Source: Thermoplasmata archaeon | GTDB lineage: Archaea; Thermoplasmatota; Thermoplasmata; Lutacidiplasmatales; UBA184 | Reading direction: 5' to 3' | DNA length: 64,000 nt | Assembly (NCBI GenBank): GCA_050011355.1 | Contig: JBEKJG010000006.1 | Span: forward strand, 30,640-94,639 | In this document: positions 1 to 19,745 of the stretch, one piece after another | Layout of the letters: each line of letters begins with the position of its first letter | Position numbering within the stretch: the stretch's first letter is position 1 | Program-made: the position numbers and the translations under genes | The notes under the pieces: generated by a model | Database searches by the model: none | Told to the model about the DNA's origin: nothing | The model's input: only the letters and a program-made list of their open reading frames with translations

Positions 1-75
1 GGGCCAAGATCCGTCGGGACCTCGACGCGGCGGCCGATACGCTCTGGGCCGCGCGCCCGAAGTGACCTCGATCGG

Positions 76-750
76 TCAGCCGAATCCGAGGTCGTCGGCC
101 AGTTCCCGGGCGACCGCGTCCGCGAGCCGCTTCGGGGGGAGGTCGATCCCCCGCTCGGCCAACCCGACCAGGCGCTCGGCGATCGACGGGTCAGGGAATG
201 CGAAGAGTCGGCGCACGAGTTCCCGATCCGTGCTCACGGAGAGGGTCCCGTGGTGCAGGAGCGCGGTTCCGGTCAGGTGCTGCGCCGCGGCACCCATCAC
301 GCGGCCGCCGACCTCCAGCACGTGTCCTCGCGAGCTGAGTGGGCAGTACTCCGTTGACAGGCCCGGGGCCGGCACCCACGCGGCGGAGACGTAGTGGACC
401 GCGAGGGCCTGCACGAGGCCGGCACCGAACCGGCCGTACCCCTGCACGAAGTCCCGGCCCACCCTCGGGTCGGACCGGGGCAGTACGATCGCCCACACGA
501 GGTCCCCGTCGAGATGGAGGATCCCGGTACCTCCCGAAGACCGGCGGACGGTCGGAACCCCCTGCTCGCCGGCACGGCGCAGGTAGGGGGCCGTCTCCGG
601 TACTCCCACTCCGACGGAGAGCGCCGTCCCCCGGACGACGGCGACGTGCACGGCCGGGAGGCCGTCCCGCAACAGCTCTTCCTGGGCCCCCAGCGCCTCG
701 GCGAAGGTGGTGGGCGTCTCGACCTCGACCACGCTCGCCCGCGGAGCCAA
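76..750 (-). CDS. Lipoate/biotin protein ligase family protein (LplA/LipM-like catalytic domain)
   Basis: 224-aa ORF. RRSSGGTGILHLDGDLVWAIVLP resembles the RRxSGGGAVxHDxGNL pocket motif of the BPL_LplA_LipB family. Confidence 0.65.
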   Translation of the reverse strand: MAPRASVVEVETPTTFAEALGAQEELLRDGLPAVHVAVVRGTALSVGVGVPETAPYLRRAGEQGVPTVRRSSGGTGILHLDGDLVWAIVLPRSDPRVGRDFVQGYGRFGAGLVQALAVHYVSAAWVPAPGLSTEYCPLSSRGHVLEVGGRVMGAAAQHLTGTALLHHGTLSVSTDRELVRRLFAFPDPSIAERLVGLAERGIDLPPKRLADAVARELADDLGFG

Positions 751-818
751 TGTTCCCTCCGTCGACCCGAGGACGCCGGCGCTCTAAACCGTAAAGACCT
801 CCGGCCGTTCGTGCCGCC

Positions 819-1370
819 ATGGCCGAACTGGGAGCCTATCAGCTGCATCCGGGCGACGCCGCCCCGGACTTCCAGCTACCGGGCGTCGACGGGAAGACGT
901 ACCGGCTCGCGGACTTCGAGAAGTTCCCCCTGCTCGCCGTCGTCTTCTGGTGCAACCACTGCCCCTACGTCCAGGCCTGGGAAGGTCGGATGATCGAGAT
1001 CGGCCGCCGGTACGCACCGCGGGGAGTGGGGGTCGTGCTGATCAACTCGAACGATGCGCGGGCCTACCCGGAGGACCGGATGGAGGCGATGGTCGTCCGC
1101 GCCCGAGAGAAGGGCTACCCGTTCCCCTACCTGGTGGACGAGTCGCAGGCGACCGCCCATGCCTACGGCGCCCTCGTGACCCCCCATCCGATGCTGTTCG
1201 GTCCGGACCGGAAGCTACTGTTCCAGGGTCGGATCGACAACGACCATCAGCATCCGGAGCGGGCGTCCGAGAAGTACCTCGAACGGGCGATCGAGCAGGC
1301 GCTCGCCCACACTCCCGTCGCCCCGGCCGAGCTAACGGTCGCGGGATGCACCGTCAAGTGGCGGTCCTGA
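819..1370 (+). CDS. Thioredoxin-fold thiol-disulfide oxidoreductase (redoxin / AhpC-TSA family)
   Basis: 183-aa ORF with PDFQLPGVDGKTYRLADF and a WCNHCP CxxC centre. Its 3' end overlaps the convergent nop5 gene by 39 nt. Confidence 0.8.
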   Translation: MAELGAYQLHPGDAAPDFQLPGVDGKTYRLADFEKFPLLAVVFWCNHCPYVQAWEGRMIEIGRRYAPRGVGVVLINSNDARAYPEDRMEAMVVRAREKGYPFPYLVDESQATAHAYGALVTPHPMLFGPDRKLLFQGRIDNDHQHPERASEKYLERAIEQALAHTPVAPAELTVAGCTVKWRS

Positions 1371-2378
1371 GTGGCGCGCCCGAGGCGGTCCGTGACCAGC
1401 CCCCCGACGGGCCTTGAGGACGCTGCGCCGCGCGTCGAACGACTGGGCCAGCTCCGGATGGATCGGCGCGCCCCCGACGTCCAGCCGGGCGGCGATCGAG
1501 ACCTTCCCGGCCAGCGCCCGCGCGAGCTTGCCGCGCTCCCCCTTCGGCGCCGACTGGATCGCCGGATGCAGAAAGAGCAGGCCGTGGCGGGGGGGCGGCG
1601 CCCGGCCCCGGAGATGCTCGAAGAAGGCCCGCTCCGCGCCGAGGACCTGGACCGTGCTGGACGGGAGGCGGGCGAGCCGCTCGAGACCCCCCGCCTGCGC
1701 GATCATCCGGGCCGATAGCTCCGGTCCGAGGAGCGCGGAGACGTTCGGCGCCCGGACCGGAGCCGTCGCCTCGATCGCCTTCGTCAGGGCATGACGTGTC
1801 CCTTCGACCGCACGGAACAGCTCGGCGAGCTTGCGGCGCGCCTCGGTGAGGGACGGGTCCTGGGGGGACAGCGCCGAGATCACTCCCGGGGCCATCGCCT
1901 CCCGAGCCGCGCGGTCGTGATCGCCCGGATCCACCTCGGGGCGGTCCCGGGAAACCCAGGTGCCGAGGCGCTCGCCGATCAGGTTGCGCACGCGGTCGAG
2001 GTCCGCCGCCGCGCGGACCGCCTCCTGGACGTGAATGCTGGGGTCCCACGCGCGCTCGAGCGCATGCTCCGCTTCGGACAGGAGAGCCGTCCGCTGGAGC
2101 ATTGGGTCCACTCCGGACGCCACCGCGTCGATCGTGACGGCAGAGTCGGCGTCGAACCGAAGACCGTGCTCGGCGAGTCGTCGGTCCCGGGTGACCCACT
2201 CCGCGCTCCCCCGAGCTCCCAGCAGCTCTTCCTCCTCCGGCGTGAGGCCACCCTCGCGCCGACGGGCCGCCCGTTGAGCGAGAGCGTCCGGGTCCAGCGG
2301 GCAGGGAACCGCGCGGACCACCGTCCCGTCCGCGACCAGGAACGCGCCGAACCAGGTCGTGACGAAGGCGATGGTCAT
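1332..2378 (-). CDS. nop5: Nop5/Nop56-family C/D box sRNP core protein
   Basis: Nop domain: NVSALLGPELSARMIAQAGGLERLARLPSSTVQVLGAERAFF...HGLLFLHPAIQ...GKLARALAGKVSIAARLD. Start set at ATG 2378 (MTIAFVTTWFG). The 135 upstream codons of ORF 1332..2783 are S/A/R-rich read-through. Confidence 0.8.
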   Translation of the reverse strand: MTIAFVTTWFGAFLVADGTVVRAVPCPLDPDALAQRAARRREGGLTPEEEELLGARGSAEWVTRDRRLAEHGLRFDADSAVTIDAVASGVDPMLQRTALLSEAEHALERAWDPSIHVQEAVRAAADLDRVRNLIGERLGTWVSRDRPEVDPGDHDRAAREAMAPGVISALSPQDPSLTEARRKLAELFRAVEGTRHALTKAIEATAPVRAPNVSALLGPELSARMIAQAGGLERLARLPSSTVQVLGAERAFFEHLRGRAPPPRHGLLFLHPAIQSAPKGERGKLARALAGKVSIAARLDVGGAPIHPELAQSFDARRSVLKARRGAGHGPPRARHSGPPLDGASRDR

Positions 2379-2474
2379 GCGGGCCCCCGGTGACGATCGA
2401 GCGTGTCTGAGTTCCGGGCCCGCCGACGGCCCGCGGGAACTTGCAGGACCACGAACGTGGGGAAGCCGTCGCGC

Positions 2475-2481
2475 ATAAATA
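2475..2481 (+). promoter_or_regulatory. TATA-like box (ATAAATA) about 28 nt upstream of the ATG at 2506
   Basis: AT-rich heptamer in GC-rich DNA. The same spacing recurs at other genes in this window, suggesting leaderless or short-leader mRNAs. Confidence 0.4.
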
Positions 2482-2505
2482 GCCCGGCTCGGGTCGAGCC
2501 CCGTC

Positions 2506-3408
2506 ATGCCCGAAGACCCCGCCCACCCCCTCGTTCGATCCGAACGGTCGGGCCCCACGCTCCTCCTCACGATCGACCACCCCCCCGTGAACGTGCTCTC
2601 TCGGGCGGTACTCGAAGCGCTTCTCCGACGGCTGGACGAGGCCGAGGCCGATCCCCAGGTCCGTGTGGTCGTGCTCGCGAGCGCGGCCGCCAAGGCGTTC
2701 GCCGCCGGCGCCGACATCCGAGAGATGGCCGGCATGGGCCCGGAGGAAGCCCGAGTGCACGGGGCGCGCGGGCAGGCCGTCACCCGGCGGATCGAACGGC
2801 TGCCGCTCCCCGTTATCGCGGCCGTCCAGGGCGTGTGCCTTGGAGGGGGGTGCGAGGTGGCCCTCGCGTGCGATTTCGTGATCGCGACCCCGGACGCCCA
2901 GTTCGGTCAACCCGAGATCAACCTCGGCGTCACCCCGGGGTGGGGGGGCTCCCAGCGCCTTCCCCGACGGATCGGGGTCGCCCGGGCTCGGCGATGGATC
3001 TACACGGGCCGGTCGGTCGGGGCGGAGGAGGCCCGCTCCGACGGCTGGGTCGACCGGGTGGTTCCCCGCGAGGAGCTCCTTCCCGCGGCCCTCGCCTTGG
3101 CAGAGGAGCTGGCGGCGAAGCCGCCGTTGGCCCTCGCCGCGGCGAAGTACGAGATCCTACGCGCCGCCGACCCGGCGATCGATGAGTCGCTCGCGTACGA
3201 GTTGGACCTGTGGGCTCGCCTCTTCGGAACGCCCGACCAGCGCGAGGGAATGCGGGCGTTCCTCGAAAAGAAGCCGGTGCCTCCGCGCGACCGGACCGGC
3301 TGGGCAGAGGACTCGGTGGGGTTCCCCTGGAGCCATCCGGGAGCTCCGGGACGGGACGACGGCGCGGGCGGAAAACGGAAAAGGAAGGACGGGTCGGGTC
3401 AGGACTGA
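2506..3408 (+). CDS. Enoyl-CoA hydratase/isomerase (crotonase) family protein
   Basis: 300-aa ORF with crotonase motifs FAAGADIREM, IAAVQGVCLGGGCEVALACD and FGQPEINLGVTPGWGGSQRLPR, plus a basic C-terminal tail. Confidence 0.85.
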   Translation: MPEDPAHPLVRSERSGPTLLLTIDHPPVNVLSRAVLEALLRRLDEAEADPQVRVVVLASAAAKAFAAGADIREMAGMGPEEARVHGARGQAVTRRIERLPLPVIAAVQGVCLGGGCEVALACDFVIATPDAQFGQPEINLGVTPGWGGSQRLPRRIGVARARRWIYTGRSVGAEEARSDGWVDRVVPREELLPAALALAEELAAKPPLALAAAKYEILRAADPAIDESLAYELDLWARLFGTPDQREGMRAFLEKKPVPPRDRTGWAEDSVGFPWSHPGAPGRDDGAGGKRKRKDGSGQD

Positions 3409-3409
3409 C

Positions 3410-3482
3410 GCCGCGGTGGCTCAGCTGGCAGAGCGGCTCCTTGGTAAGGAGCAGGTCGAGGGTTCAAATCCCTCCCGCGGCT
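3410..3482 (+). tRNA. tRNA-Thr (anticodon GGU)
   Basis: Hand-folded cloverleaf. Acceptor GCCGCGG/CCGCGGC, D-stem GCTC/GAGC, anticodon stem GCTCC/GGAGC with loop TTGGTAA, T-arm GAGGG-TTCAAAT-CCCTC, discriminator T. Confidence 0.9.
3458..3482 (+). repeat. Left copy of direct repeat (T-arm stems plus 3' acceptor strand of tRNA-Thr)
   Basis: GAGGG..CCCTCCCGCGGCT. The 13-mer ccctcccgcggct recurs exactly at 5192..5204 and the 17-mer aaatccctcccgcggct recurs 16/17 at 5188..5204. GAGGG also recurs at 5167..5171. Confidence 0.7.
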
Positions 3483-3552
3483 TCGGGACGAGTCGCTCGT
3501 CGACACCCGGACGGGATTCGGTTCGAGCCAAGGCGGGTGGATTACAGCAGCT

Positions 3553-3873
3553 TCAATCTGCCGGAGGCCCCCGACTGTGCGGCTTAAAACCCTGGTACGT
3601 CCGATTCGTACGCAGTAGAATCCGCTCTATCACTGGACGCCCGTGACGGATTTGGTAGAGCGCCCGATATCCAACAACTTTCAGACGCCATCGCCTCGGA
3701 TCATTTCGAATGGGGCAGACGTCCAAAGTTTCGGACGGCCTTTGGGGGTATCGAGTGAACTCAGGGAATAGGGCCGCGAACTGCTCGATAACTTCCGGAG
3801 GAAGCGCCCAGAATTGGAGACGGGCACTGAACGTGAAGTCGGGCCAATCGTCCCGCGACCTACGTGCGGCCAC
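3553..3873 (-). CDS. RelE/ParE-superfamily toxin-like protein
   Basis: 106-aa ORF. RRWRLKVVGYRALYQIRHGRPVIERILLRTNRTY fits the RelE/ParE pattern (wRlRvGdYRaiYei...v.i..v.hR...Y). It overlaps the upstream antitoxin-like ORF by 14 nt. Paralog at 20307..20630. Confidence 0.65.
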   Translation of the reverse strand: MAARRSRDDWPDFTFSARLQFWALPPEVIEQFAALFPEFTRYPQRPSETLDVCPIRNDPRRWRLKVVGYRALYQIRHGRPVIERILLRTNRTYQGFKPHSRGPPAD

Positions 3874-4102
3874 GCTGGCGGCTCCACTCGGCGAACTCGC
3901 GCTTCATTTCGGCGCCCGGAATGATGCGCTCCGTACGGAGCCGCCGGTCCAGCTCGGACCGGAGGGATGGGGAAATGAAGTCATCCGCGAGCGCCAAGAG
4001 AAAGTCGTCCCACGTCTGATCGGCCATCTTGGTCCCGCGAAGTGCCTGCAGCGTGGATTGGTGAACGGGGATGCTCGTGACCGCGTCCGAAGTCGACATC
4101 AT
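3860..4102 (-). CDS. Antitoxin-like protein (PF02697/DUF217 VapB-like pattern)
   Basis: VTSIPVHQSTLQALRGTKMADQTWDDFLLALADDF aligns with the paralog at 20080..20310 (LTSIPVHADVVRRLRSLKTADQTWDEFLTEMAEDY). The track ORF begins at TTG 4108. ATG 4102 or 4099 fits the TATA box at 4123..4129 better. Confidence 0.6.
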   Translation of the reverse strand: MMSTSDAVTSIPVHQSTLQALRGTKMADQTWDDFLLALADDFISPSLRSELDRRLRTERIIPGAEMKREFAEWSRQRGRT

Positions 4103-4122
4103 TTGCAAAATGATTCAAATGG

Positions 4123-4129
4123 TATAAAA
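4123..4129 (-). promoter_or_regulatory. TATA box (TTTTATA on the minus strand) for the TA pair
   Basis: Lies 24-27 nt upstream of the ATG codons at 4102 and 4099, in a locally AT-rich spacer. Confidence 0.45.
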
Positions 4130-4387
4130 GAAGTGACTTGCCTGGCCGCGCGACCGGTTCCGCCGAGCATTCATCCTCCGCGACCCCGCTCCCATCTTAC
4201 TCGGAATCGCCGGGAGATTGGGTCTTCGCACCCCGGGACCTTGAACAGGTCACCGGAGCCCTCCTACGGCTGACTTCCCAGGTCGACGGCGTCTCCTCGA
4301 ACGGTACCGTTCCGCCCCTCAAAAGCCAAGGCTGCCGTCCACCGAAAATCTCCTATCGAGTATTCTACTACCCTTTACCGCGTTCCC

Positions 4388-5101
4388 ATGCGACTCCGAA
4401 CCGTCTTCTTCGACTGGGGCGGAACGCTCGCGCAGATTCCACCGCAGCTCAATCGACCCGAACTGGTCTGGGACTCGACCTGCTCGGGTTTCGACATCCG
4501 ACGCACGGAGGCAGAGATCCACCAGGCGCTCGTCGAGGTGGACCGGAGTCTAGGCCCCCAGATCTACAGGTACGTAGGGCGAACGCGCGAATACTGGGGA
4601 CTCTACGACGGGGCCATGATGGATCGATTGGATATCCAGTTCCGCCGGGACGAGATCGAAGCGGCCGTGCAGGCAAAGTTCGAGGACCCCTCGGTCGTGC
4701 AGCTCTTCCCCGAGACCTGGTCTGTCTTGGACCGTCTTCGGGCCCAGGGGTACCCGCTGGGCGTGATTTCGAATCACCACGACGGGCTATTGGACGTGTT
4801 GAGGTTTCACGGCCTCGACCAAGTCTTCAAGTCCGTCACTTACTCGCAGGAGGTAGGTGCGGAGAAGCCCTCGTCCGCAGTGTTCGAGCGGGCCCTGAAA
4901 CGGGCGGGATGTTCACCGGACGAAGCCCTGCATGTGGGAGATTCTCTTCGGGCCGACGTAGAAGGAGCCGAAGCCTGCGGGCTCAGCGCGGTCTGGCTGA
5001 ACCGGGATGGGCGGCCGGGGGTAACGACGGCGCGAACCATTCGGACTCTAAACGAACTGGTGCCCATTGTCGAGCAGCTGGCGGGCCCAGGCAAGGGATG
5101 A
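4388..5101 (+). CDS. HAD-superfamily hydrolase (subfamily IA-like)
   Basis: 237-aa ORF with motif I FFDWGGTL, motif II VISNH, and motif III/IV EKPSSAVF...HVGDSLRADVEGA. Confidence 0.85.
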   Translation: MRLRTVFFDWGGTLAQIPPQLNRPELVWDSTCSGFDIRRTEAEIHQALVEVDRSLGPQIYRYVGRTREYWGLYDGAMMDRLDIQFRRDEIEAAVQAKFEDPSVVQLFPETWSVLDRLRAQGYPLGVISNHHDGLLDVLRFHGLDQVFKSVTYSQEVGAEKPSSAVFERALKRAGCSPDEALHVGDSLRADVEGAEACGLSAVWLNRDGRPGVTTARTIRTLNELVPIVEQLAGPGKG

Positions 5102-5166
5102 GGTAGCTTCCCACCGCCCACCCTGGATCGCCTCCATTCTCTAAGGGTGTCGGAGTTCCTCGGACC

Positions 5167-5204
5167 GAGGGCTTTGAATCAAACGAGAAAGCCCTCCCGC
5201 GGCT
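5167..5204 (+). repeat. Right copy of the tRNA-Thr 3'-end repeat, with a T-arm-like hairpin and expanded loop
   Basis: gagggcttt(5167-5175) - 12-nt loop - aaagccctc(5188-5196), followed by ccgcggct. It keeps the GAGGG/CCCTC T-stem and the 3' acceptor strand of tRNA-Thr. No matching 5' acceptor strand (gccgcgg) lies upstream. Confidence 0.65.
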
Positions 5205-5346
5205 CGTCCGGGGACCCGGACCGGTGGACGCGAAACGTTCCGGTCGAGTGTGAACGCGAACGGCGGGGTCGATGACCCGCCCCCGCCTCCCGACCTTGTC
5301 CGTGGGACGTTAGGGCGAGCGTCGAAGGGGCCGGCGTGGCGGGCCC

Positions 5347-5871
5347 CTACGCCGTGATGCGTTCCCTCACCACCCTCCGAGCGATCGTCGCGACTTGCCT
5401 TTCGGTCCGCCCGTCGGTGTCGATCACAAACTCTCCGCGGACCGGGCGAGTGACCCAACCCTCGTGGCTCGCCCGGACATAGGAGGGCCGGAGGGTCGTC
5501 TTCCTTCGGACCGCCTCGGCGGTGGAGGTCGTCAGGCGGAAGAGCACCACCCGAGGGTCTGAGCGCGACCTTCCGACCTTGCGCAGGAAGCGGTCGACGT
5601 TCTTGGTCGAAAGCAGGAGTCCGGGGTCCATCACGAGGTTCAAGCCTCGCCCGAGGACGAGCCGTGCGTGGAGCGCCAGAAGGTCGATCTCCACATCCCA
5701 CTCCTGATCGAGGAACTCCCCCGAAGAGTCGGCCGGGTGGTACGAAGCTGCAGCGTCTGTGTCGAGGGCCCAAAACGGAACGCGACGGCCACGGGCGAGC
5801 GCGCGCATCAGCGTGGTCTTGCCCGCACCGATCGGGCCACGGATGATCGCGAGGAGCGGTCGTGCCTTCAT
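5347..5871 (-). CDS. P-loop NTPase/kinase (AAA_33 / zeta-toxin-like fold), function unknown
   Basis: Walker A IRGPIGAGKTTLMRAL. Start set at ATG 5871 (MKARPLLAII). The upstream part of ORF 5347..6039 carries no recognisable signal. Confidence 0.6.
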   Translation of the reverse strand: MKARPLLAIIRGPIGAGKTTLMRALARGRRVPFWALDTDAAASYHPADSSGEFLDQEWDVEIDLLALHARLVLGRGLNLVMDPGLLLSTKNVDRFLRKVGRSRSDPRVVLFRLTTSTAEAVRRKTTLRPSYVRASHEGWVTRPVRGEFVIDTDGRTERQVATIARRVVRERITA

Positions 5872-6132
5872 CGCCGGGTACCCATGTTCCACGCCGCTTC
5901 GGGCAAGAGAGGGTACACCTTTACTCCACCCCATCGTGGACACGTGGGGGGTGCACCGGACCGCCTCGGGAACAACGAACTTCGGACTCAACCACGCGGC
6001 CTCGCCACGGCCGATCCTCCCTCTCGGGCCGAACGTCAAACCTTCCCACCGGATCCTTCACTCTCGGGGCGGCTAGGTTCGCGGAGCGCTCGCGCTGAGG
6101 GAACGGCCGCCCCGCCAGCCATGGACTAAAGC

Positions 6133-7008
6133 GTGGGGGATGCCTTCGGTGGAGTGAAGGAAGCGAACGATCTGACCGGAGCCGAGGAGCTGGTTCGCCG
6201 CGCCCATCGGACCGAGATCGAGGCCAAGTGGGCGATCACCCAGATCGCACCACGACCCCGTCGTCGGGATTGGCCGGGGGCCACCGCTGTCGCCTGTGAC
6301 GTTCCCTCGTCCGTCGCCAACGTCCTCTTCGTGACCGAACGCCCCTCGGACCCGAACGGCCTCCTGGACGAGGCGAGCGGGTTCTTTGGGCCGAGCACGC
6401 CGTGGAAGATGATGGCCCCCCGGGAGCTCGCGCCCACCCTGGAGCGGGCCGCCCAGCGAGCCGTCCTCACACCCTCGGAGACGGTGCCGGGGCTCCTGTT
6501 GGACCCGGTGGCCACCCCTCCGGCACCGCCCCCGGGGTTTGCCGTCCGAGCGGTGACCGACCTCATGGACTTTCGACTCTTCCTGAAAGCCGGCGCGGCG
6601 GGATTCGGGATCCCGCACTGGATCCTTCGGGCGGCGTTCCGGGAGCTACCTTCTGCGCCGGCGAACGGAGACCCTCCTCTCCAGCTGTTCGTGGGCCTCG
6701 CGGGCGGGAAACCCGTCGCGACATCCGCACTGTTCGTGGGCCGGGAAATCTCGGAGGTCTCGTTCGTCAGCACGGTCCCCGGCGCGCGGAAGCACGGCTA
6801 CGGTGCGGCCATCACGTGGGCCGCCGTAGGGGCCGGACGAGGTCGGGGCGGACGGTCCGCGTATCTTCGGGCGACCGAGATGGGCCGGTCGGTCTACGAG
6901 CGGATGGGCTTCCGGTGGCTGGTCGACTACCAAGAGTGGCACTCTGCACTGTCTGGAGTGCACAAGCTCCGCGCCGTGCTCCGGGCTCTCCGCATCGCCC
7001 TCGTCTGA
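6133..7008 (+). CDS. GNAT-family N-acetyltransferase with an N-terminal extension
   Basis: C-terminal acetyl-CoA motif VSTVPGARKHGYGAAITWAAV...YERMGF. Start uncertain. Confidence 0.65.
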   Translation: MGDAFGGVKEANDLTGAEELVRRAHRTEIEAKWAITQIAPRPRRRDWPGATAVACDVPSSVANVLFVTERPSDPNGLLDEASGFFGPSTPWKMMAPRELAPTLERAAQRAVLTPSETVPGLLLDPVATPPAPPPGFAVRAVTDLMDFRLFLKAGAAGFGIPHWILRAAFRELPSAPANGDPPLQLFVGLAGGKPVATSALFVGREISEVSFVSTVPGARKHGYGAAITWAAVGAGRGRGGRSAYLRATEMGRSVYERMGFRWLVDYQEWHSALSGVHKLRAVLRALRIALV

Positions 7009-7056
7009 TCGAACTTCCCGACAGGGAGGTGTTCGGGTCGGGGCCCCTGTCTTGGA

Positions 7057-10000
7057 ATGTACCCGGTCCTGGGGGGTTGGGAACCGTTATCCTTGTGGTG
7101 GAAGAATGAGGCGACGGACGGAGAGGTCGACATGGAGGCGTGGGCGGAGTGGGTCCGGACCGGGTTTCGAGACGGTACTTTCGCCCCGCGAGTCGGGTTC
7201 GTCACCGCGGTGGTTGGCCTACTCCTCCTCTCATCAGTCCTCGTCGGGGTGGTCGCATCGGCAGGACCGTCGAGCTTCCCCACGGCTCGCTCGGCTCCGA
7301 CAGTACCGCTCGCTACGCACTCCCTGCCTCCGTCGGGGGGCCGAGCTACCCCGGCGTCGGGGGGCGTCGGGACGGTCATCGACACCCTGGACCTCCCGTC
7401 GAATCGGTTACTCGCCGGCAACCAAGCCCCGGCCCCACAGGGGACTCCCCAGATGCTACTTTTCGACCCCGGCAACGGCAACTTCTACGTTCGCGGGAAT
7501 GCGGGTCAGACGATCAGTGTCGTCAACGCGTCGACCGACGCCGTGCTGACCAGCCTGACCGTGGGCTACGGCGGGAGTGCCTACATTCCGAACGTCCCCA
7601 CGGTCGCCCTGGACCCGGCCACCGGTGACCTGTTCGAGACGAACCCCACCTCTGGGACGGTCGGGGTGATCTCGACCTCCACGAACCTATTGACGCATTC
7701 CGTCCCACTCGGCACGGGACCGGGAGGTATCGTATTCGACCCGGCGAACGGGAACTTCTACACCTCCAATTGGTACAGCGACAATGTCTCCGTCATCTCG
7801 GGTTCGACCGACCAGCTCCTGGGGTCCATCCACGTCGGAGGCGAGCCGGGCGCGATCCTGTACGACCCGAACAACACGGAGGTGTTCGTATCGAACTTCA
7901 ACACCGGCAACGTCTCGGTCATCAACTCGACGACCGAGTCGGTGGTGGCAAACCCCCGGACTGGCCTCAGCGGCTCTGAGCCGCTCGCACTGACGCTGAA
8001 CACGGCGAACGACCTGGTCTATGTCGTCAACTCGCTCACCAACAACATCACGGTGATCAACGGGACGACCAACAACGCGACTGCGACCGTTCCCGTGGGG
8101 TCGGTACCGACCTCCGCCACCTATGCCGTGTCGACCGACCAGCTCCTGGTCGCGAACGGAGCCTCGAACAACGTGACCGTGCTCCAGCTCCCCGCGAACA
8201 CTGCCGTGGCCAGCATCGCCATCGGACACGGCGCCCAGGGCGCGGTCTACGACCCCCACAGCGGTGACGTTTACACGGCGAACTATGGGTCGAACAACGT
8301 CAGCATCCTCGACCCGTCCACCGACACGTGGGTCGGGGCGGTGACGACCGGCAATTTCCCGGAAGAGATCGCCGTCGACCTGCATGACGGCAACGTGTAC
8401 GTGGCCAACCTCGGGACGGACGCCGTCGACTCGAACCTCACGGTCATCTCCGGCACGACCTCCCTTTCGATCGGTTCGGTCGGACTGACCGCGATCCCGA
8501 CCTCCCTGACCGCGGTCCCGGGCGGCAACCTCTACGCCATCGACTACGGCGGCTCGGACGCCTACATCATCTCCGAGTCGACCAACCACGAGACGGGGGT
8601 CGTTCCCGCCGCGTCGCCGGAGCCGACCTACTCGGCGTTCGACACCGCGACGGACGACCTGTACATCACGAGCGAACCCACGGGGGCGGTCAACGTCGTC
8701 ACGACGACCGGAACCGTGGTGGCGACCCTCAACCTGGGATTCGGCTCGGACGGCGTCGCCTACGACCCCTCGAACGGCGAGGTCTACGTCTGCAACTACT
8801 ACAGCGGAAACGTCACCATCATCGACGGGACGACCGAGACGGTCCACTCCGTGATCACGGTCCAGACATTCGACAGCCTGGGCGCCGAGATCTACGACCC
8901 GGCCGATTCCTCGGTCTACGTGGCGGACTATCTCGACCACAACGTGACCGTGGTCAGCGGGGGAGCCACCGACGGCTCGATCCAGGTCGGGACCGACCCC
9001 TCCTCGTTCGCCTACGATCCCCAGAATGACACCATCTTCGTCGCGAACTACGGTTCGAACAACATCAGCGTGATCAACGCGACGACCAACCAGCTCGTCG
9101 GGACGGTCTCCGGATACTACCCCGACTACCTGGCGTACGACTCCGGAACCAACTCGGTCTACGTGGCGTCCGCGGAGAACGGGGAGGTCGATGCGTTCAA
9201 CGCTTCGACGTACCTCACGCTCGGGTCGCCGTTGATGATCAACTCCTCCGTCCGTTCGGGCGGGATCGCCTACGGCGCCACCTCCGGCGACATCTACGTG
9301 ACGAACGAGTTCGGCGGTTCGCTCTCGGTCATCTCAAGCTCCAACGTCTCGAGCTACCCGGTCACCTTCGTGGAGAACGGGCTCCCGTCCGGCACGAGCT
9401 GGGGCGTGACCCTCGGCGGAACACCGAACCTGTCGACCACCCCCGACGTCGGGTTCACCGAACTGAACGGCTCATACCCCTTCTCGGTCGGGAGCGTAAC
9501 GGGATACGTTGCGAACGTCACTTCCGGTAACGCGGTGGTCGCGGGCAAGGCCGTGACGGTGTTCATCGGATTCACGCCCAACTCCTCCCCGAATTCCTTC
9601 CCCGTCCAGTTCAACGAAACCGGCCTCCCGACGGGGACGCAGTGGGGAATCTCCCTGACGCCGTCCGGCGCGGGCTCCCTCGGCGAAGCCGCCCCCTCGC
9701 CCATCCTCTTCGAGCTGTCGAACGCAAGCTACTCGTTCCACGTCGGTGCGGTCAGCGGGTACACTTCCTCGCCGAGCTCGGGCCCTTTCACCGTCGCCGG
9801 ATTGCCGGTCTACGTAGACGTCACCTTCACGGCTGCTTCCACTACCCTCACGGCCTCGCTCACGATCGACCCCTCGAACCTGACCCTGGGTTCGAGCACC
9901 ACCCTCACGACGTCCGCCTCCGGCGGAGCGCCCCCCTACTCGTACGTGTACGCGGGCCTCCCGGCGGGCTGCACCTCCTCCAACGTCGCCACGTTCAGCT

Positions 10001-10293
10001 GCACCCCCACGGTCGATGGGACGTTCACGGTCGCGGTGACCGTCACCGACCACAACGGGACCCAAGCGGTGGCCCACGCTTCGCTGACGGTCCACGCGCC
10101 GGCGGTCGTCACGACGACGAGCGGTTCCTCCAGCCTGCTTTGGATCGTCGTCGCGGTCGTCGTCATCCTCGCCGTGCTGCTGCTGCTCTTCTTCTTCGCG
10201 TGGCGACGCCGAAAGAAGGACGACCAGCTTCCTCCGCCCTCCTCGTCGGCAGCTGTGCCCCCCCCGCCGACTCCGCCGCCCGGTTCCACCTAG
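7057..10293 (+). CDS. Large surface protein: YVTN beta-propeller repeats, Ig-like domains and a C-terminal TM anchor
   Basis: Many ~40-aa repeats of the YVTN type (G.P.GI.FDP.NGN.YV.N..S.NVSVI...T). One He_PIG-like module (GGAPPYSYVYAGLPAGC...FSCTP..DGTFTVAVTVTD). TM LLWIVVAVVVILAVLLLLFFFAW followed by RRRKK and a Pro-rich tail. Dense N-x-S/T sequons. Alternative start ATG 7132 (MEAWAEW) has an SD-like GGAGAGG upstream. Confidence 0.85.
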   Translation: MYPVLGGWEPLSLWWKNEATDGEVDMEAWAEWVRTGFRDGTFAPRVGFVTAVVGLLLLSSVLVGVVASAGPSSFPTARSAPTVPLATHSLPPSGGRATPASGGVGTVIDTLDLPSNRLLAGNQAPAPQGTPQMLLFDPGNGNFYVRGNAGQTISVVNASTDAVLTSLTVGYGGSAYIPNVPTVALDPATGDLFETNPTSGTVGVISTSTNLLTHSVPLGTGPGGIVFDPANGNFYTSNWYSDNVSVISGSTDQLLGSIHVGGEPGAILYDPNNTEVFVSNFNTGNVSVINSTTESVVANPRTGLSGSEPLALTLNTANDLVYVVNSLTNNITVINGTTNNATATVPVGSVPTSATYAVSTDQLLVANGASNNVTVLQLPANTAVASIAIGHGAQGAVYDPHSGDVYTANYGSNNVSILDPSTDTWVGAVTTGNFPEEIAVDLHDGNVYVANLGTDAVDSNLTVISGTTSLSIGSVGLTAIPTSLTAVPGGNLYAIDYGGSDAYIISESTNHETGVVPAASPEPTYSAFDTATDDLYITSEPTGAVNVVTTTGTVVATLNLGFGSDGVAYDPSNGEVYVCNYYSGNVTIIDGTTETVHSVITVQTFDSLGAEIYDPADSSVYVADYLDHNVTVVSGGATDGSIQVGTDPSSFAYDPQNDTIFVANYGSNNISVINATTNQLVGTVSGYYPDYLAYDSGTNSVYVASAENGEVDAFNASTYLTLGSPLMINSSVRSGGIAYGATSGDIYVTNEFGGSLSVISSSNVSSYPVTFVENGLPSGTSWGVTLGGTPNLSTTPDVGFTELNGSYPFSVGSVTGYVANVTSGNAVVAGKAVTVFIGFTPNSSPNSFPVQFNETGLPTGTQWGISLTPSGAGSLGEAAPSPILFELSNASYSFHVGAVSGYTSSPSSGPFTVAGLPVYVDVTFTAASTTLTASLTIDPSNLTLGSSTTLTTSASGGAPPYSYVYAGLPAGCTSSNVATFSCTPTVDGTFTVAVTVTDHNGTQAVAHASLTVHAPAVVTTTSGSSSLLWIVVAVVVILAVLLLLFFFAWRRRKKDDQLPPPSSSAAVPPPPTPPPGST

Positions 10294-10389
10294 AGGGGCC
10301 GGGGCGCGTCCCGAGCGAGCGGGTGGGGCGTTGCATTCGAGGCGTCGCCGGGTCCGCACGTTATACCGCGACGTCGGTTACCGGACCCG

Positions 10390-10884
10390 ATGGCCCTCAC
10401 CAAGACCGAACGTGAACTGCATCGCAAGATGGGTACCCGATGCTTCAACGAGGCGTGGGACTACCTCGAGAAACGTCACCGGACCGCCCGGGACGACCGG
10501 CAGTTGCTCCACCTCGTCCACGCTTCGCGCTACCACTGGGACCTCGCGGGGACGGCCCAGAACCGGGCGATCGCGGACTGGCAGGTCTCCCGGGCCTACG
10601 CCGCGCTCCGGTCCCCCACGCTCGCGATCCAGTTCGCCCGCTCCGCGCTCGACCTCTGCGAGGAGAACGACCTCGCGGAGTTCCTCGCCACCGCCTACGA
10701 GGCGATGGCCCGCGCGCACGCGACGGCGGGAGAGCTCCGTCCGGCCCGCCAGTTCCTCTCGAAGGCCCGGGCGCAGCTGGACGTGAGCCCCCTCGACGCG
10801 GAGGGACGCGAGGTCTACCGGAGCCAGATCCGCGAGACCGAACGTCTCGTTCAACGTGCGGCAAAGCGCCGCCGCCCGGCCTAG
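10390..10884 (+). CDS. Conserved-looking helical protein of unknown function
   Basis: 164-aa ORF with non-repetitive composition (NEAWDYLEK...HASRYHW...DWQVSRAYAAL). No family recognised by eye. Confidence 0.55.
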   Translation: MALTKTERELHRKMGTRCFNEAWDYLEKRHRTARDDRQLLHLVHASRYHWDLAGTAQNRAIADWQVSRAYAALRSPTLAIQFARSALDLCEENDLAEFLATAYEAMARAHATAGELRPARQFLSKARAQLDVSPLDAEGREVYRSQIRETERLVQRAAKRRRPA

Positions 10885-12857
10885 TCCGGGTCGTTATGGC
10901 GCCGGGTCGTCCGGCGCATTGCCCCGCGGCGAACGCCGATCCCCACGGCGATGAGAGCGACCGCTCCGAGGCCGGCCACCAGCAGGTACCCTTCCCCCGC
11001 GGGCAGTCCGAGGAACGTGGGAGCCGGCGGGCCCACGACCGCCGAAGCGGAGGCTGCCGGTCCGAAGTAGTGGTAGTTCAACGCGAACACCTCCACGGAG
11101 ACTCGGGCTCCGTCCGATAGTCCCGTGATGGTGTAGGAGTCCGCCCAGGGCATCAGCGGAACCCAATGTTCGCAGGCGGAGCCGTTCGTGGTCCAGCAAA
11201 GTGTCAGGTTGAGGAGCGGCCCCCCGGACGTGTTCTCGGCCCATGTGGCGGTCACCGACGTGGTGTTCGTCGATGTGAGCGTCAGGGCCGGCGCGGGCGG
11301 GGCCGAAGGCTCGGCCAGCGGGCTGGTCGGCGCGTAGGGGAATTCCGGGAGCGCGGTGTTCCACAACCACCACTCGGTACCGGGGACGCTCGCCCCGGCC
11401 GACCCGTGCAGGGAGCAGGTGATCTCGCACGACCCCGAACGGGGGGACACGAGGTAGCTGCCGTTGTGGAAGAGGTTCGCCGTGCTGAACGTCCCCGACG
11501 GCCCGAAGATCCCCGGGTTCGCTTCCGTCCCGAGCGTCGACCACTCTCCGGTGACGGGGTTCAGGATGGCGGAGGTGTTGTTCCAGGCCTCGGCGACGAA
11601 CGGCCCGGCCGCGGTGATCGGGACGCGGTCGGAGGCTCCCCCCTCGACCCCGAGGTTCCCGCCGGCGTTGAGCGGTGGATGGGGCGGTCCGTAGGGACAG
11701 GTATTGATGGTGTTCGGCGGACCGACCGGGACGAACCCGGTCGCGATGCCGCCGACGATCGGCAGGTAGCCGTTGACGATCTTTCCGGCCGAGCAGTTTC
11801 CCGCCGTGAGCGACCACTCCCCCGCCGTGATGTTGTATCCTCCCGCGTCCGCGAACGCCGACTTGATCCCGGACGCCCACGCCCCTGCGAATTCCTCCGA
11901 GAGGTTGTTCCCGTTCCAGACCAGCTGCTGCCACTGGTCGAGTCGGCTGCCCCCGGCCTGTTCGTTGATGAACGAGTCGATCGACGGCATCCAGTCGAGG
12001 TTGTTCGCCTCGAAGTAGACGAGGATCGCGAGCTCCCGGGGGATCGCCCGCGCCGGGCTGCCGACCGGCACGCCGTAGACGACACCGGTCTCGTCGACGA
12101 CGACCGCCTCGTCGTCGCTCCCGTTCTGCCCGATGAGCATCCCCTGGACGTTCTTCTCCGTGTTCCCGATCCCGCCGGCGTTCGAGAACGTGAGTCCGGT
12201 GAAGGTGTACGTCCACACCGCTCCCGTCGAGACGTTCGCCACCTCTATCTCGACGCTGGGTTCGGGGTCTGCTTGGCAGCTCGTCGGGCAACCGATCGCG
12301 TAGATCTCGCTGCCGTCCTGCGTGATGTACTCGGTGTTCGCGACCCCGTTGTACAGCATGAGGTCCTCGTAGAGCGGCGTCCAGGCGGCGACCCTCGTCA
12401 CCGCGCCCGACGCGAAGTTGTCGAACACCAGGTCGTCGGAGACGTTGACGTAGAACACCCCGTCGGCGGTCCAGGAGACGATCGGAACCTGGGCCCCGTT
12501 GGTCTCGTTGCTCGCGGCCCCGGGAACATCCACGTACGACGCCAAGGTCGTGTACCCCGGCAGCACGAAGGTGGCGTTGCCGTAGAGGGTCGGATCGGGG
12601 TTGACCGGTAAGTCGGTTGCCGTCGCGACCGACGTCCCCGCGGAATGGTGCGCTGCGGCTGGGGACAGCGGCAGGCCGCCAGATCCGATCCTCCGGACGT
12701 CGACCCCTAGGCTGACGGTGGACACGACCAGGAACGCGATCAAGGCGATCGCGGCGATCGGCACCTGTAGGGAGGGCCGGCTCGCCATGCGTGGTTTCGT
12801 CACGGGGCTCCGTAGGGACTGTGGTCCTGGGAGGGTACGAGGACCCATGCAGGACAC
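10881..12857 (-). CDS. Secreted or membrane-anchored glycoprotein with an FN3-like domain and C-terminal TM anchor
   Basis: N-terminal hydrophobic segment IAAIALIAFLVVSTVSL. FN3-like LTSTNTTSVTATWAENTSGGPLLNLTLCW...YTITGLSDGARVSVEVFALN. C-terminal TM YLLVAGLGAVALIAVGIGV followed by RR. Alternative starts at ATG 12848 (SD GAGGAG 8 nt upstream) and ATG 12788. Confidence 0.7.
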   Translation of the reverse strand: MSCMGPRTLPGPQSLRSPVTKPRMASRPSLQVPIAAIALIAFLVVSTVSLGVDVRRIGSGGLPLSPAAAHHSAGTSVATATDLPVNPDPTLYGNATFVLPGYTTLASYVDVPGAASNETNGAQVPIVSWTADGVFYVNVSDDLVFDNFASGAVTRVAAWTPLYEDLMLYNGVANTEYITQDGSEIYAIGCPTSCQADPEPSVEIEVANVSTGAVWTYTFTGLTFSNAGGIGNTEKNVQGMLIGQNGSDDEAVVVDETGVVYGVPVGSPARAIPRELAILVYFEANNLDWMPSIDSFINEQAGGSRLDQWQQLVWNGNNLSEEFAGAWASGIKSAFADAGGYNITAGEWSLTAGNCSAGKIVNGYLPIVGGIATGFVPVGPPNTINTCPYGPPHPPLNAGGNLGVEGGASDRVPITAAGPFVAEAWNNTSAILNPVTGEWSTLGTEANPGIFGPSGTFSTANLFHNGSYLVSPRSGSCEITCSLHGSAGASVPGTEWWLWNTALPEFPYAPTSPLAEPSAPPAPALTLTSTNTTSVTATWAENTSGGPLLNLTLCWTTNGSACEHWVPLMPWADSYTITGLSDGARVSVEVFALNYHYFGPAASASAVVGPPAPTFLGLPAGEGYLLVAGLGAVALIAVGIGVRRGAMRRTTRRHNDPD

Positions 12858-12945
12858 TCCTCTTCACGTTGAACCACGCTGGGCGCGGCCAGGCAGAGTG
12901 CTCTCCGGGCCCCTTGGCCACCCAGGTCGGAAGAGGGCGCGGAGC

Positions 12946-13842
12946 TCACCCTCCGAGGGCCTTGACTGGAGGAGAGGGAAGACCCCTCCGGACGAATCGG
13001 GCGGAGATCGCCTGGCCGACCCGGACCACGAGATAAACGGAGAACGCGATGGTGACGATGAAGAAGCTTGCGGGGTACTGCGCGTAGAATTGGACGAACA
13101 GCCCCACCCACGTGGCGAACAGCGCCACCGCGATCGAGACCAGGACCGCATAGAGTGGACGCCGGGTGAGCCGCACCGCCACTGCGGCCGGGGTGACCAT
13201 CAGAGCAAAGATCAGAAGCACACCAATCACCTGGACCGCGATCGAGATCGCGACGGCGAGGAGGAGCATGAACGTCAGGCCGAGCGCGAGCATCGGCATA
13301 CCCTTCGCCTCCGCGACGTCCTCGTCCAGCGAGGCGAACAGCAGCCGCCGGTAGATCAGCGCGATCACTACGAGGACGACCGCGCTCGCCTCGAGCGTGA
13401 ACAGGACCCCGCTGTCGCTGATGCCCAGTATTTCTCCGAACAGGATCGAGTACGCCTCGGTCGCATAGCCGTTGTAGAGGCTGATGAACAGCAGGCCCAA
13501 TCCCAGCATGAACGCCAACACGGTCCCGATCTCGATGTCCCGGTTCGCCGCCCGGGGCCCCAGCAGCGCCATCCCGGTCGCCCCGGTGGAGGTGAACAGA
13601 AGGAGACCGTAGACGGGGTTCACCCCGAGGAGTACCGCCGCGGCCGCGCCCGAGAACCCGACATGTCCGAGCGCGTGCGTCGCGAAGGCAGAGCGGCGGA
13701 TAATGACGAAGTAGCCGATGATGCCGGCAACGATCGAGATGATCGTGCCGGCTTCGAAGGCATTGCGCATGAACCCGAACTCCCACATCGTGCGGAGGTC
13801 GGTGATCAGGTTCCAGCTGAACGGAACCAGGTCGCCGGTCAT
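12946..13842 (-). CDS. Metal (Zn/Mn-type) ABC transporter permease, ABC-3 family
   Basis: 298-aa polytopic ORF (FMRNAFEAGTIISIVAGIIGYFVIIRR..THALGHVGFSGAA) typical of ZnuB/MntB/TroC. Overlaps the ATPase gene by 4 nt. Confidence 0.85.
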   Translation of the reverse strand: MTGDLVPFSWNLITDLRTMWEFGFMRNAFEAGTIISIVAGIIGYFVIIRRSAFATHALGHVGFSGAAAAVLLGVNPVYGLLLFTSTGATGMALLGPRAANRDIEIGTVLAFMLGLGLLFISLYNGYATEAYSILFGEILGISDSGVLFTLEASAVVLVVIALIYRRLLFASLDEDVAEAKGMPMLALGLTFMLLLAVAISIAVQVIGVLLIFALMVTPAAVAVRLTRRPLYAVLVSIAVALFATWVGLFVQFYAQYPASFFIVTIAFSVYLVVRVGQAISARFVRRGLPSPPVKALGG

Positions 13843-14666
13843 CCGTTCTCCCCCCCGTGCGGGTCCTCACCGCCGACGATCACGATGTTGTCGCGCGAGT
13901 CGTGGAGCACCTCGACCGGCACCCCGTAGAGTTCGGAGAGGGAGGCCGAGGTAAGAACCTCCTCCGGGGCGCCGGTGGCGACGTTGCCGTTGGCGATGTA
14001 GATCACCTTGTCCAGGCACTGGATCAGCGGGTTGATGTCGTGGGCCACGAGCAGGGTCGTGACGTGTCGAGTCTGCACGAGCCCGTGGATCACCTCCACC
14101 AGTTCGCGGCTGCGCCGGAGGTCCAGGTTGGACAGGGGCTCATCGAGGAGCAGCATCTCGGGATTTCCGACGAGGGCCTCGGCGAGGAAGACCCTCTGCA
14201 GTTCCCCTCCGGAGAGCGTGCCGAGCGGTTTCGGCCCAAGCTCGGCGGCCCCCACGGCCCGGAGCGCTCCGGCGGCCGCTTCCCGCTCGGGGCGGATCGA
14301 GAGGCCGGGCCCCCATTTTGTGCCTGACACACCGAGGCGAACCAGCGTTTCCGCGGCGACGTGCGTGTCGTTATCGATCGTATGCCGCTGGGGGACGTAA
14401 CCGATCCGCGAGTTCCCTCGCCGAGGGGTCGCACCGAATACCGTTAGCGACCCAGCCATGGGGTGCTGCAGTCCCAACAGGAGGCGAAAGAGCGTGGTCT
14501 TGCCGGCGCCGTTCGGTCCGATGACCGCCACGAACTCGCCTCGTCGGACGTCGAGCGTGGCGTCCTGCCAGACCACCTTCCCGCGATAACCGACCTCGAG
14601 ATGCTCGGCGCGCACGACCTCCGGCCCTTCACGGAGCTCGGCGGATCGTCGGTGCGATGCGTTCAC
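13839..14666 (-). CDS. Metal ABC transporter ATP-binding protein
   Basis: Walker A GPNGAGKTTLFRLL, signature LSGGELQRVFLAEAL, Walker B LLLDEP. Confidence 0.9.
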   Translation of the reverse strand: MNASHRRSAELREGPEVVRAEHLEVGYRGKVVWQDATLDVRRGEFVAVIGPNGAGKTTLFRLLLGLQHPMAGSLTVFGATPRRGNSRIGYVPQRHTIDNDTHVAAETLVRLGVSGTKWGPGLSIRPEREAAAGALRAVGAAELGPKPLGTLSGGELQRVFLAEALVGNPEMLLLDEPLSNLDLRRSRELVEVIHGLVQTRHVTTLLVAHDINPLIQCLDKVIYIANGNVATGAPEEVLTSASLSELYGVPVEVLHDSRDNIVIVGGEDPHGGENG

Positions 14667-14672
14667 GGTAGA

Positions 14673-15752: not shown

Positions 15753-15790
15753 CGAGAACCCTCCTGTCTCCGCGACCTCGATCGGGCGGG

Positions 15791-16222: not shown

Positions 16223-16243
16223 GTTCCTTTCAGGTTCCGAGAG

Positions 16244-16250
16244 TATATTA
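16244..16250 (-). promoter_or_regulatory. TATA-like box (TAATATA on the minus strand) about 25 nt upstream of the repressor ATG at 16222
   Basis: Lies in the most AT-rich spacer of the window (16230..16290). Confidence 0.45.
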
Positions 16251-16257
16251 TCACATG

Positions 16258-16272
16258 TACTAATTATTAGTA
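16258..16272. promoter_or_regulatory. Perfect 7-1-7 palindrome TACTAAT-T-ATTAGTA, candidate DtxR-family operator
   Basis: Verified base by base. It sits immediately upstream of the TATA-like box of the repressor/importer operon. Confidence 0.5.
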
Positions 16273-16412
16273 ATTATGAAAATTCGAGAACTTCTCTTGG
16301 GTTGACTCCGTAGGAGTCGACCGGTTGCACTCGGCGACCCCATTCGTACCGGACGCCGGGAGGGGGACCCGGTGCGCTCTTCAGCCGGAGAGGAACTGAC
16401 CCTCGACGGGCC

Positions 16413-19723: not shown

Positions 19724-19745
19724 GCGCCCTCCATGGCCGCGCCGC

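Follow-up and report, generated by a model that had tools for sequence, protein, structure and literature searches.

Compact gene cassettes anchored on a tRNA-Thr gene in soil Thermoplasmata, without a neighbouring integrase gene

Within a 64-kb stretch of a Thermoplasmata archaeon genome (Lutacidiplasmatales; assembly GCA_050011355.1, contig JBEKJG010000006.1, positions 30,640 to 94,639; hereafter the window), a tRNA-Thr(GGT) gene is followed by a toxin-antitoxin (TA) pair, a HAD-superfamily hydrolase and then a second copy of the tRNA's own 3′ end. What kind of element leaves genes in such a frame, and how were they brought there? The interval between the tRNA and the copy (3483-5204) is the tRNA-proximal part of a cassette array that belongs to high-GC Thermoplasmata of soil and peat. 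In these arrays short units, each closed by one 36-38 nt site, stand in tandem behind the tRNA; their cargo differs between close strains and across lineages, and no integrase gene lies nearby. The explanation favoured here, with a probability of about 0.62, is an integron-like cassette array anchored on a tRNA gene, lacking an integrase of its own and moved by a recombinase that acts in trans. The observation that led to the original prediction for this locus is confirmed, and the interpretation given with it is partly supported.

The first question is whether the repeat is real. The tRNA-Thr end AAATCCCTCCCGCGGCT (3466-3482) recurs as AAAGCCCTCCCGCGGCT at 5188-5204, identical at 16 of 17 positions with 13 exact, just as had been claimed, and the claim that a chance match is unlikely also stands for the full 17-mer: allowing up to two mismatches, it has two matches only in the 64 kb, against 0.01 expected from shuffled sequences. 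The 13-mer alone, searched with at most one mismatch, reaches two or more matches in 14 of 100 shuffles and is therefore weaker, unconvincing evidence. On that 13-mer, not very unusual in so GC-rich a window, one could build the view that the repeat arose by chance or by local duplication of part of a tRNA and is irrelevant to mobility, the genes beside it being ordinary chromosomal ones. Against it stand not only the 17-mer but also the recurrence of a 36-38 nt site 32 times in other genomes, each time downstream of the same tRNA and the presence and absence of cassettes among relatives; it is already contradicted by the site-model searches and by the comparisons of loci L007 with L205 and L030 with L007 described below (loci other than the window carry L numbers), and deserves next to no credence. 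When the suggested frequency check on the 13-17-mer was run on the 64-kb window, the repeat proved not to be frequent.

Composition points the same way. The interval has a GC content of 0.613, compared with 0.722 upstream of the tRNA (1-3409) and 0.689 in the whole window; its two parts, 3483-4271 and 4272-5204, have 0.605 and 0.621. The spot values quoted originally are reproduced (0.55 at 3601-3720 versus 0.683 at 2581-2640). The proposal that the interval is inserted DNA between a tRNA 3′ end and its copy is supported, and its content of a TA pair and a HAD hydrolase is confirmed by open reading frames (ORFs) and Pfam. The features of the locus are as follows.

3410-3482, + strand: tRNA-Thr(GGT), found by ARAGORN and Rfam (69.6 bits), the anchor of the array
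3483-4271 (789 bp): cassette 1, a RelE-type TA pair, from the tRNA end to the site at 4235-4271
3553-3873, − strand: RelE-family toxin of 106 amino acids, with a structure-based match to archaeal RelE
3860-4108, − strand: antitoxin of about 79-82 amino acids, likely ATG start at 4102 or 4099
4235-4271, + strand: degenerate cassette site GGGACCTTGAACAGGTCACCGGAGCCCTCCTACGGCT closing cassette 1, found by repeat search and nhmmer (E = 0.0038)
4272-5204 (933 bp): cassette 2, the HAD hydrolase, bounded by two sites
4388-5101, + strand: HAD-superfamily hydrolase of 237 amino acids (Pfam Hydrolase 1.8e-20, HAD_2 1.3e-18)
5167-5204, + strand: full cassette site GAGGGCTTTGAATCAAACGAGAAAGCCCTCCCGCGGCT closing cassette 2 (nhmmer E = 4.6e-8)
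5347-5871, − strand: P-loop kinase (AAA_33) of 174 amino acids, with an 82%-identical gene in L026

The second question is what the repeat consists of. An nhmmer model was built from 13 sites of other genomes only and used to search the whole window; it has exactly three matches there, all on the + strand.

5166-5205, + strand, E = 4.6e-8: full length
3464-3482, + strand, E = 0.0016: the tRNA end, core only
4235-4272, + strand, E = 0.0038: near full length

Altogether, 32 distinct full sites were collected from genome and metagenome loci, with the consensus GGGgcTTcGAaCtatCGct-AAAGtCCTCCCGCGGCT. Their layout is GGGnCTTyGAAC-N9-13-AAAGyCCTCCCGCGGCT, 36-38 nt in length; conservation begins about 36 nt before the base equivalent to the tRNA discriminator, and information falls to about zero directly after it. 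The closing repeat had been taken for a copy of the tRNA T-stem and acceptor strand. This holds for the core, while the upstream half of the site is not tRNA sequence; GAGGG is indeed present at 5167-5171, as part of the conserved non-tRNA upstream motif and not as a retained T-stem half. In 404 kb (the window and 28 related loci), at E ≤ 0.01, the model matches only downstream of tRNA-Thr, and in the orientation of the tRNA itself except for one inverted copy. That copy, a full site in L023 at 8996-9031 on the − strand, 32 nt after tRNA-Thr (8892-8964), could be the trace of an inversion between sites. The last 12-17 nt of the tRNA-Thr gene (3466-3482) would serve as the resident recombination core.

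Since the model matches 4235-4272, between the antitoxin and the HAD gene, the interval is made of two cassettes, one with the TA pair and one with the hydrolase. The division agrees with the TA-only cassettes of L021 and L232 and with L008, where the HAD gene occurs alone. The same observations contradict the earlier notion of a unit composed of a TA pair plus a hydrolase. Nor does that layout define the elements: a TA pair is just one of many kinds of cargo, and hydrolases are frequent cargo in general. The family that had been proposed does exist, in the form of sites and arrays in related loci.

These relatives allow the third question, whether the DNA behind the tRNA varies as inserted DNA should. 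The window matches uncultured Thermoplasmata contigs from peat and soil. Through the enoyl-CoA hydratase gene that lies upstream, 28 Thermoplasmata loci were retrieved, and tRNA-Thr(GGT) directly follows this gene in 27 of them. Three of the metagenome-assembled genomes (MAGs) involved, AcS1-36, SubAcS15-31 and SubAcS15-67, are Lutacidiplasmatales of acid soils with about 69% GC (PMC9287336). The DNA after tRNA-Thr differs in nearly every related locus, so that synteny does break at this gene. In L026, the tRNA is followed at once by the kinase gene, 82% identical to that of the window, forming the only cassette there and with a site after it (9630-9672), and L026 is therefore without the TA pair and the HAD gene; in L008 a 69%-identical HAD gene stands directly after tRNA-Thr, without the TA pair. 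Empty or differently filled sites of this sort (L026, L008, and L007 compared with L205) are what integrative elements leave in relatives. The kinase gene of the window (5347-5871) is probably an older cassette with a decayed site; the nhmmer model detects no site after it in the window. A stretch at about 5968-6009 resembles a decayed site by eye only and, being missed by the model, was not accepted. The kinase itself weakly resembles chloramphenicol-phosphotransferase-like kinases (CPT, E = 0.018).

In several relatives the tRNA-Thr 3′ end recurs two to four more times downstream of the gene. Arrays of one to five cassettes occur in L007, L017, L020, L021, L026, L028, L134, L145, L177, L189, L205, L208, L221, L244/L245 and L246, of which the following have two sites or more in the tally.

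L017: 4 sites
L007: 3 sites
L205: 5 sites
L177: 4-6 sites
L189: 3 sites
L244: 4 sites
L020: 2 sites
L021: 2 sites
L246: 2-3 sites

The cassettes are compact, with a median length of 906 bp (range 556-2977 bp, n = 32), and usually hold one gene; cassette GC content is 0.61, against 0.72 in the flank. By Pfam, the cargo includes alpha/beta hydrolases (at least five), GNAT acetyltransferases (four), glyoxalase, SnoaL/DUF4440, MarR, PNPOx, cytidine deaminase, an adenylate cyclase-TPR protein, an amidohydrolase, a prenyltransferase-like protein and metal transporters, besides HAD and P-loop kinase genes and TA pairs of the RelE, VapBC and HepT-MNT types. Relative to the tRNA, ORFs lie in both orientations (24 to 15); because of this, the cassettes probably carry their own promoters, and promoterless cassettes in one orientation with a common promoter, as in integrons, were not found. 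A large share of the cargo looks like enzymes that modify antibiotics or act in detoxification, including the GNATs and proteins with glyoxalase/bleomycin-resistance folds, and L017 encodes a cytidine deaminase domain of the blasticidin-S deaminase kind at 11124-11567. L246 (1-5074) presents at least three TA families consecutively in one tRNA-Thr(GGT) array, RelE-like, VapBC (PIN plus ribbon-helix-helix) and HepT-MNT, with a possible fourth pair at the contig end. In L017 and L020, conservation extends to the first ~40 nt of every cassette, and likewise to the DNA that follows the tRNA (GGCGGTCAnCTCGGGCGTnCGCCCGGCCCTTTGGCAACGG, which includes a small hairpin); in other arrays cassettes start with GATTCTC or TCGGG.

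Whether cassettes move as units is seen best in two pairs of loci. L007 and L205 have a 100% identical tRNA and share two cassettes that are 99.5% identical. The tRNA is separated from the shared cassettes by a single 2505-bp cyclase cassette in L007 and by two small, unrelated ones in L205; the loci become almost identical again exactly at the core, while the upstream half-sites differ. Because the two loci differ only in their tRNA-proximal cassettes, with the junction at the core, recent turnover has taken place at the tRNA-proximal end. Compact cassettes with one terminal site each and entry next to the anchor are features of an integron-like array. L007 also carries an IS66-family insertion (14212-15764, with a 478-amino-acid transposase) in its amidohydrolase cassette, which L205 does not have. 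The second pair is more divergent. Between L030 (SubAcS15-31) and L007, only the tRNA (92%) and one two-gene cassette can be aligned in 16.8 kb; this cassette, a GNAT and an alpha/beta-hydrolase gene, is 84% identical over 1697 nt, and the homology begins inside the core. It occupies the first position in L030, the second in L007 and the third in L205, and by these alignments appears as a discrete unit transferred horizontally across lineages.

These comparisons bear on the main rival explanation, that the arrays are the decayed remains of successive larger elements with integrases (viruses, plasmids or tycheposon-like islands) that entered the same tRNA gene and, after losing their mobility genes by deletion, left cargo and partial-tRNA scars behind. 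Tycheposons do integrate in tandem at tRNA genes, displacing older ones and leaving partial tRNAs (bioRxiv 10.1101/2020.12.28.424599); direct repeats of a tRNA 3′ end in low-GC DNA are the classic signature of such elements, and some sites are degenerate (4235-4271 in the window, and those in L026, L028 and L030). Several findings speak against decay. The cassettes are all compact and mostly of one gene, and in every case a 36-38 nt site with a non-tRNA half stands directly after the cargo. In the Pfam results for about 45 ORFs of cassettes and flanks no integrase gene, recognisable integrase fragment or tyrosine-recombinase family was found. Moreover, contigs that are 99.5% identical differ by whole small cassettes and have no integrase, and a 1.7-kb cassette has passed between divergent lineages as one unit with its boundary in the core. 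Decay of larger elements is accordingly judged unlikely, and movement of cassettes by a recombinase in trans is preferred.

Arrays at other tRNAs carry other cores. In L232 the sites at tRNA-Thr(CGT), GGACCTGAAC...AAGTCCTCCTGTGGCT and GGGGGGACCTGAAC...ACGTCCCTTCGGTGGCT, copy the end of that tRNA, CCCTCCGGTGGCT, with the cores CCTCCTGTGGCT and CCCTTCGGTGGCT. Within the window itself, a second anchor is provided by the tRNA-Met locus, for which the original prediction had claimed a similar arrangement.

19746-19848, + strand: initiator-like tRNA-Met(CAT), the second anchor, read from the sequence; its D-arm region contains about 27 inserted nt
19849-21637 (1789 bp): tRNA-Met cassette or cassettes, GC 0.63
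20080-20310, + strand: antitoxin
20307-20630, + strand: toxin
20673-21455, − strand: alpha/beta hydrolase
21602-21637, + strand: site GGGATTTGAACGAAAGTGCGATACCATGCCCCGCTA, with the same upstream motif and a tRNA-Met-end core

The tRNA-Met of the original prediction is to be understood as an intron-containing gene: ARAGORN does not call it and Rfam gives none at the gathering score, its partial match covering the anticodon and T arms (23.6 bits, E = 0.0088). The insertion is read here as a probable non-canonical intron, and the 3′ part of about 63 nt is nearly identical in 11 relatives. The site reads GGGATTTGAAC-N12-CCATGCCCCGCTA, and its core CCATGCCCCGCTA copies the tRNA-Met 3′ end. Copies of that end lie downstream also in L026 and L018. 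The upstream motif is of the TGAAC type in L232 and the window sites and TTTGAGC in L026, with none recognisable in the L018 copy. From the L232 and tRNA-Met sites it follows that the upstream motif is largely constant while the core follows the target. The two TA pairs of the window are paralogous, as predicted (antitoxins 49% identical, E = 2e-17; toxins 26%, E = 3e-7).

The distance from tRNA-Thr to tRNA-Met is 0.9-7 kb, with variable DNA between, in L026 (8872-9895) and most relatives, and 16 kb in the window, where 5205-19745 encodes the P-loop kinase, a GNAT (6133-7008), a 1078-amino-acid NHL-repeat protein, a Znu-type ABC transporter, a dienelactone hydrolase and TrmB; these genes may be old cassettes or the product of a rearrangement. 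The tRNA-Met cassette is followed by a GNAT gene (23235-23801) and an overlapping pair of genes for 137 and 82 amino acids (23837-24495), which looks like another TA module and has no Pfam match. A hidden site between the toxin and the alpha/beta hydrolase of the tRNA-Met locus is not claimed, the only resemblance being weak and inside coding sequence, and the tRNA-Ser gene at 58294-58381 was rejected as an anchor because no copy of its 3′ end occurs downstream.

How might such cassettes be inserted? The unit is a cassette of one to a few genes in either orientation, ending in one 36-38 nt site. This site combines a common upstream motif (GGGnCTTyGAAC and 9-13 nt) with a core that follows the anchor tRNA, copying the 3′ half of its T-stem, the 3′ strand of its acceptor and its discriminator. 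A circular cassette with one site would then recombine with the tRNA 3′ end by conservative site-specific recombination, probably with exchange within the acceptor strand CCGCGGC(T); insertion would regenerate the tRNA and displace older cassettes distally. The recombinase would have to act in trans because the array encodes none. Exchange would occur 3′ of the AAAG-T/AAAT-C positions, since internal sites keep AAAG-T and the tRNA keeps AAAT-C. In addition, the core of the window TA site, CCTCCTACGGCT, has T at position 6, as has the homologous L232 cassette, which weakly suggests that the left part of the core travels with the cassette.

The same nucleotides help to weigh a different mechanism, in which the cassettes are non-autonomous transposons moved by a casposase/Cas1-like enzyme and the repeated tRNA end is a target-site duplication, comparable to what spacer acquisition beside a leader produces. 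Casposons target tRNA 3′ ends, insertion here is likewise polar and beside a tRNA, and the stretch that matches the tRNA without any difference is short, at 12-13 nt, its end coinciding exactly with the junction. But there are no terminal inverted repeats, the left ends are not the reverse complement of the right-end motif, and the Pfam results contain neither Cas1 nor a casposase. A new duplication would be expected to be exact, whereas the internal cores keep AAAG-T against AAAT-C along the arrays, and TA cassettes at two different tRNAs have in common the core variant with T at position 6. Target-site duplication is for these reasons considered very improbable, and recombination at the core remains the preferred mechanism.

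An AlphaFold2 model of the toxin in the window's TA cassette (pLDDT 82) has archaeal RelE as its top Foldseek match (3bpq_B, E = 2.6e-5, TM 0.78) and 1wmi_A as its second (E = 3.3e-4); RelE is also matched when PDB sequences are searched with a profile (E = 0.01-0.04), and Pfam gives a weak ParE_toxin match (E = 0.02). The predicted RelE/ParE fold is that of a type II TA toxin. So is the gene order, with the antitoxin gene immediately upstream and overlapping the toxin start (3873) by 14 nt, and the pair is conserved in six loci. Members of the antitoxin family match DUF7557 and VAPB_antitox weakly. A TATA-like TTTTATA can be read from the − strand at 4129-4123; its distance of 21-27 nt from the antitoxin ATG, on the upstream side, would suit a leaderless archaeal transcript. 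In L232, tRNA-Thr(CGT) is followed first by a homologue of cassette 1, with 72% identical DNA along 540 nt. Close homologues of the toxin form 52 clusters, most of them on short contigs, and in four of five contexts the toxin is in a cassette bounded by sites: the window, tRNA-Thr(CGT) in L232, tRNA-Thr(GGT) in L246, and L244/L245. By analogy, the TA cassette plausibly stabilises the array through post-segregational killing; for TA cassettes of integrons such a role is described in references cited by PMC9668308.

A recombinase that could serve the array was sought in several ways. The claim that the interval has no recombinase is correct, and extends to the rest of the window: Pfam annotation of the called genes contains no recombinase family in the whole 64 kb. 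The large uncharacterised ORFs after tRNA-Thr in relatives without sites include no integrase, their cargo being of the same kind, and a crude catalytic-motif scan (a box-II regular expression, applied to all loci) found none. A 306-amino-acid protein at 55959-56879, 1.4 kb upstream of tRNA-Ser, was rejected as a candidate as it has no RHRY-type motifs and no Pfam match. A helper virus or plasmid carrying the site was likewise not supported, since viral contigs, scanned with the core pattern and separately with the upstream-motif pattern, gave chance matches only and no full site. A hairpin or attC-like structure of the site was rejected as a general feature: the window copy has a perfect 9-bp stem (z = −2.26), but only 3 of 20 sites fold better than shuffles as single-stranded DNA, with z mostly between −0.9 and +1.6, and the tRNA-Met site retains the GGG motif although it is unable to pair with its core.

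Several points weigh against a trans-mobilised cassette array. No recombinase was found in the 64-kb window or within about 8-10 kb on either side of the arrays, and neither a circular cassette nor an excision junction is among the observations. The site is not built like the usual tyrosine-recombinase core, in which two inverted arms flank a spacer of 6-8 bp, sequence beyond the core is not conserved, and the crossover position proposed above depends on a few nucleotides. For a single-strand mechanism of the attC type there is no conserved hairpin, as RNAalifold gave no consensus structure for 15 sites. Recognisable sites occur in only 7 of the 28 related genome loci, and in the fifth TA context, L235, ribosomal-protein operons lie on either side and neither a tRNA nor a site was found. 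Most of the data come from MAGs and metagenome contigs, and the metagenome scan, run with a 16-mer, hit at least 120 loci, most of them by chance, with about 11 loci holding true sites among the matches listed.

How do these arrays relate to known systems? They are best described as cassette arrays of site-specific recombination, or tRNA-anchored islands, with the array design of integrons and a different site and anchor. Integrons likewise are arrays of small, mostly single-gene cassettes with one terminal site each and insertion next to the anchor; their cargo is similarly rich in TA systems and acetyltransferases, and the clusters of attC sites without an integrase known as CALINs also lack an adjacent one (PMC9668308). 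In contrast, integrons have intI beside the array, and none was found here among window genes, array ORFs or in the motif scan; attC is an imperfect palindrome with GTTRRRY, whereas the site described here has neither GTTRRRY nor a conserved imperfect hairpin, and Rfam at the gathering score returns tRNAs only; and the anchor is a tRNA gene whose end the core follows. The genes also lie in both orientations and are probably not read from one array promoter. The paper on archaeal integrons mentions neither tRNA nor Thermoplasmata (PMC9668308).

Islands that target tRNA genes, such as the tycheposons of Prochlorococcus and elements of the SSV and pNOB8 types, share integration into a tRNA with its regeneration, repeats of partial tRNA, tandem growth with newer insertions at the tRNA and a compositional shift, and the combination of an intact tRNA with a direct repeat of its 3′ part is found here as in such elements. 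They encode their own tyrosine recombinase, usually beside genes for replication or structure, and their length is several to tens of kilobases; the units described here, with a median of 0.9 kb, encode no integrase and hold cargo only, closed by a conserved non-tRNA half-site. The pdif modules of Acinetobacter plasmids are one- or two-gene units, often with TA or resistance genes, flanked by short sites for the host Xer recombinase. Small units, short sites and, on the pdif side, a host-encoded tyrosine recombinase make them a close parallel, but pdif sites are plasmid-borne dif copies whose orientation alternates, unlike the direct repeats here, which mimic tRNA 3′ ends on the chromosome. 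Casposons share the polar insertion at a tRNA 3′ end, and differ in their inverted repeats and Cas1 transposase. Cis-mobilizable elements (CIMEs) are described (PMC6323972, PMC5704250) as att-flanked elements without recombination genes that are mobilised by a related integrative and conjugative element (ICE). The cassettes resemble them in being bounded by att sites, in lacking an integrase and, on the favoured reading, in depending on a recombinase from elsewhere; CIMEs are nevertheless bacterial, single decayed partners of specific ICEs, in contrast to multi-cassette arrays with a dedicated common site.

Integrases and mobile elements are not mentioned in the Lutacidiplasmatales genome paper (PMC9287336). 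Searches of full texts yielded no description of integrase-less, tRNA-anchored cassette arrays in archaea, which is no proof of novelty. The contigs of L013 and L014 end at the position of tRNA-Thr, that of L014 exactly at the tRNA. Because contigs end there and toxin homologues are mostly on contigs of less than 5 kb, short-read assembly seems to break at the arrays; they are probably under-represented in MAGs, and their variation is easily missed.

A wider proposal is put forward tentatively, at odds somewhat short of even: that soil Thermoplasmata possess a dedicated gene-capture system, an integron analogue of independent origin, with a chromosomal recombinase acting in trans, a two-part site and several tRNA genes as targets. 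Cassettes with their own promoters would be inserted, excised and shuffled, and would cross lineages with detoxification and antibiotic-modifying-like enzymes and TA families. The question raised is which recombinase acts on a tRNA acceptor strand beside GGGnCTTyGAAC, and the 36-38 nt site model offers a concrete means of finding further arrays in metagenomes. If the mechanism holds, integron-like gene capture would have a second route, one that uses tRNA genes as anchors and can be retargeted by copying another tRNA end; it would explain how small accessory genes are exchanged among abundant archaea of acid soils, and would provide a handle on gene exchange in archaea that are still uncultured.

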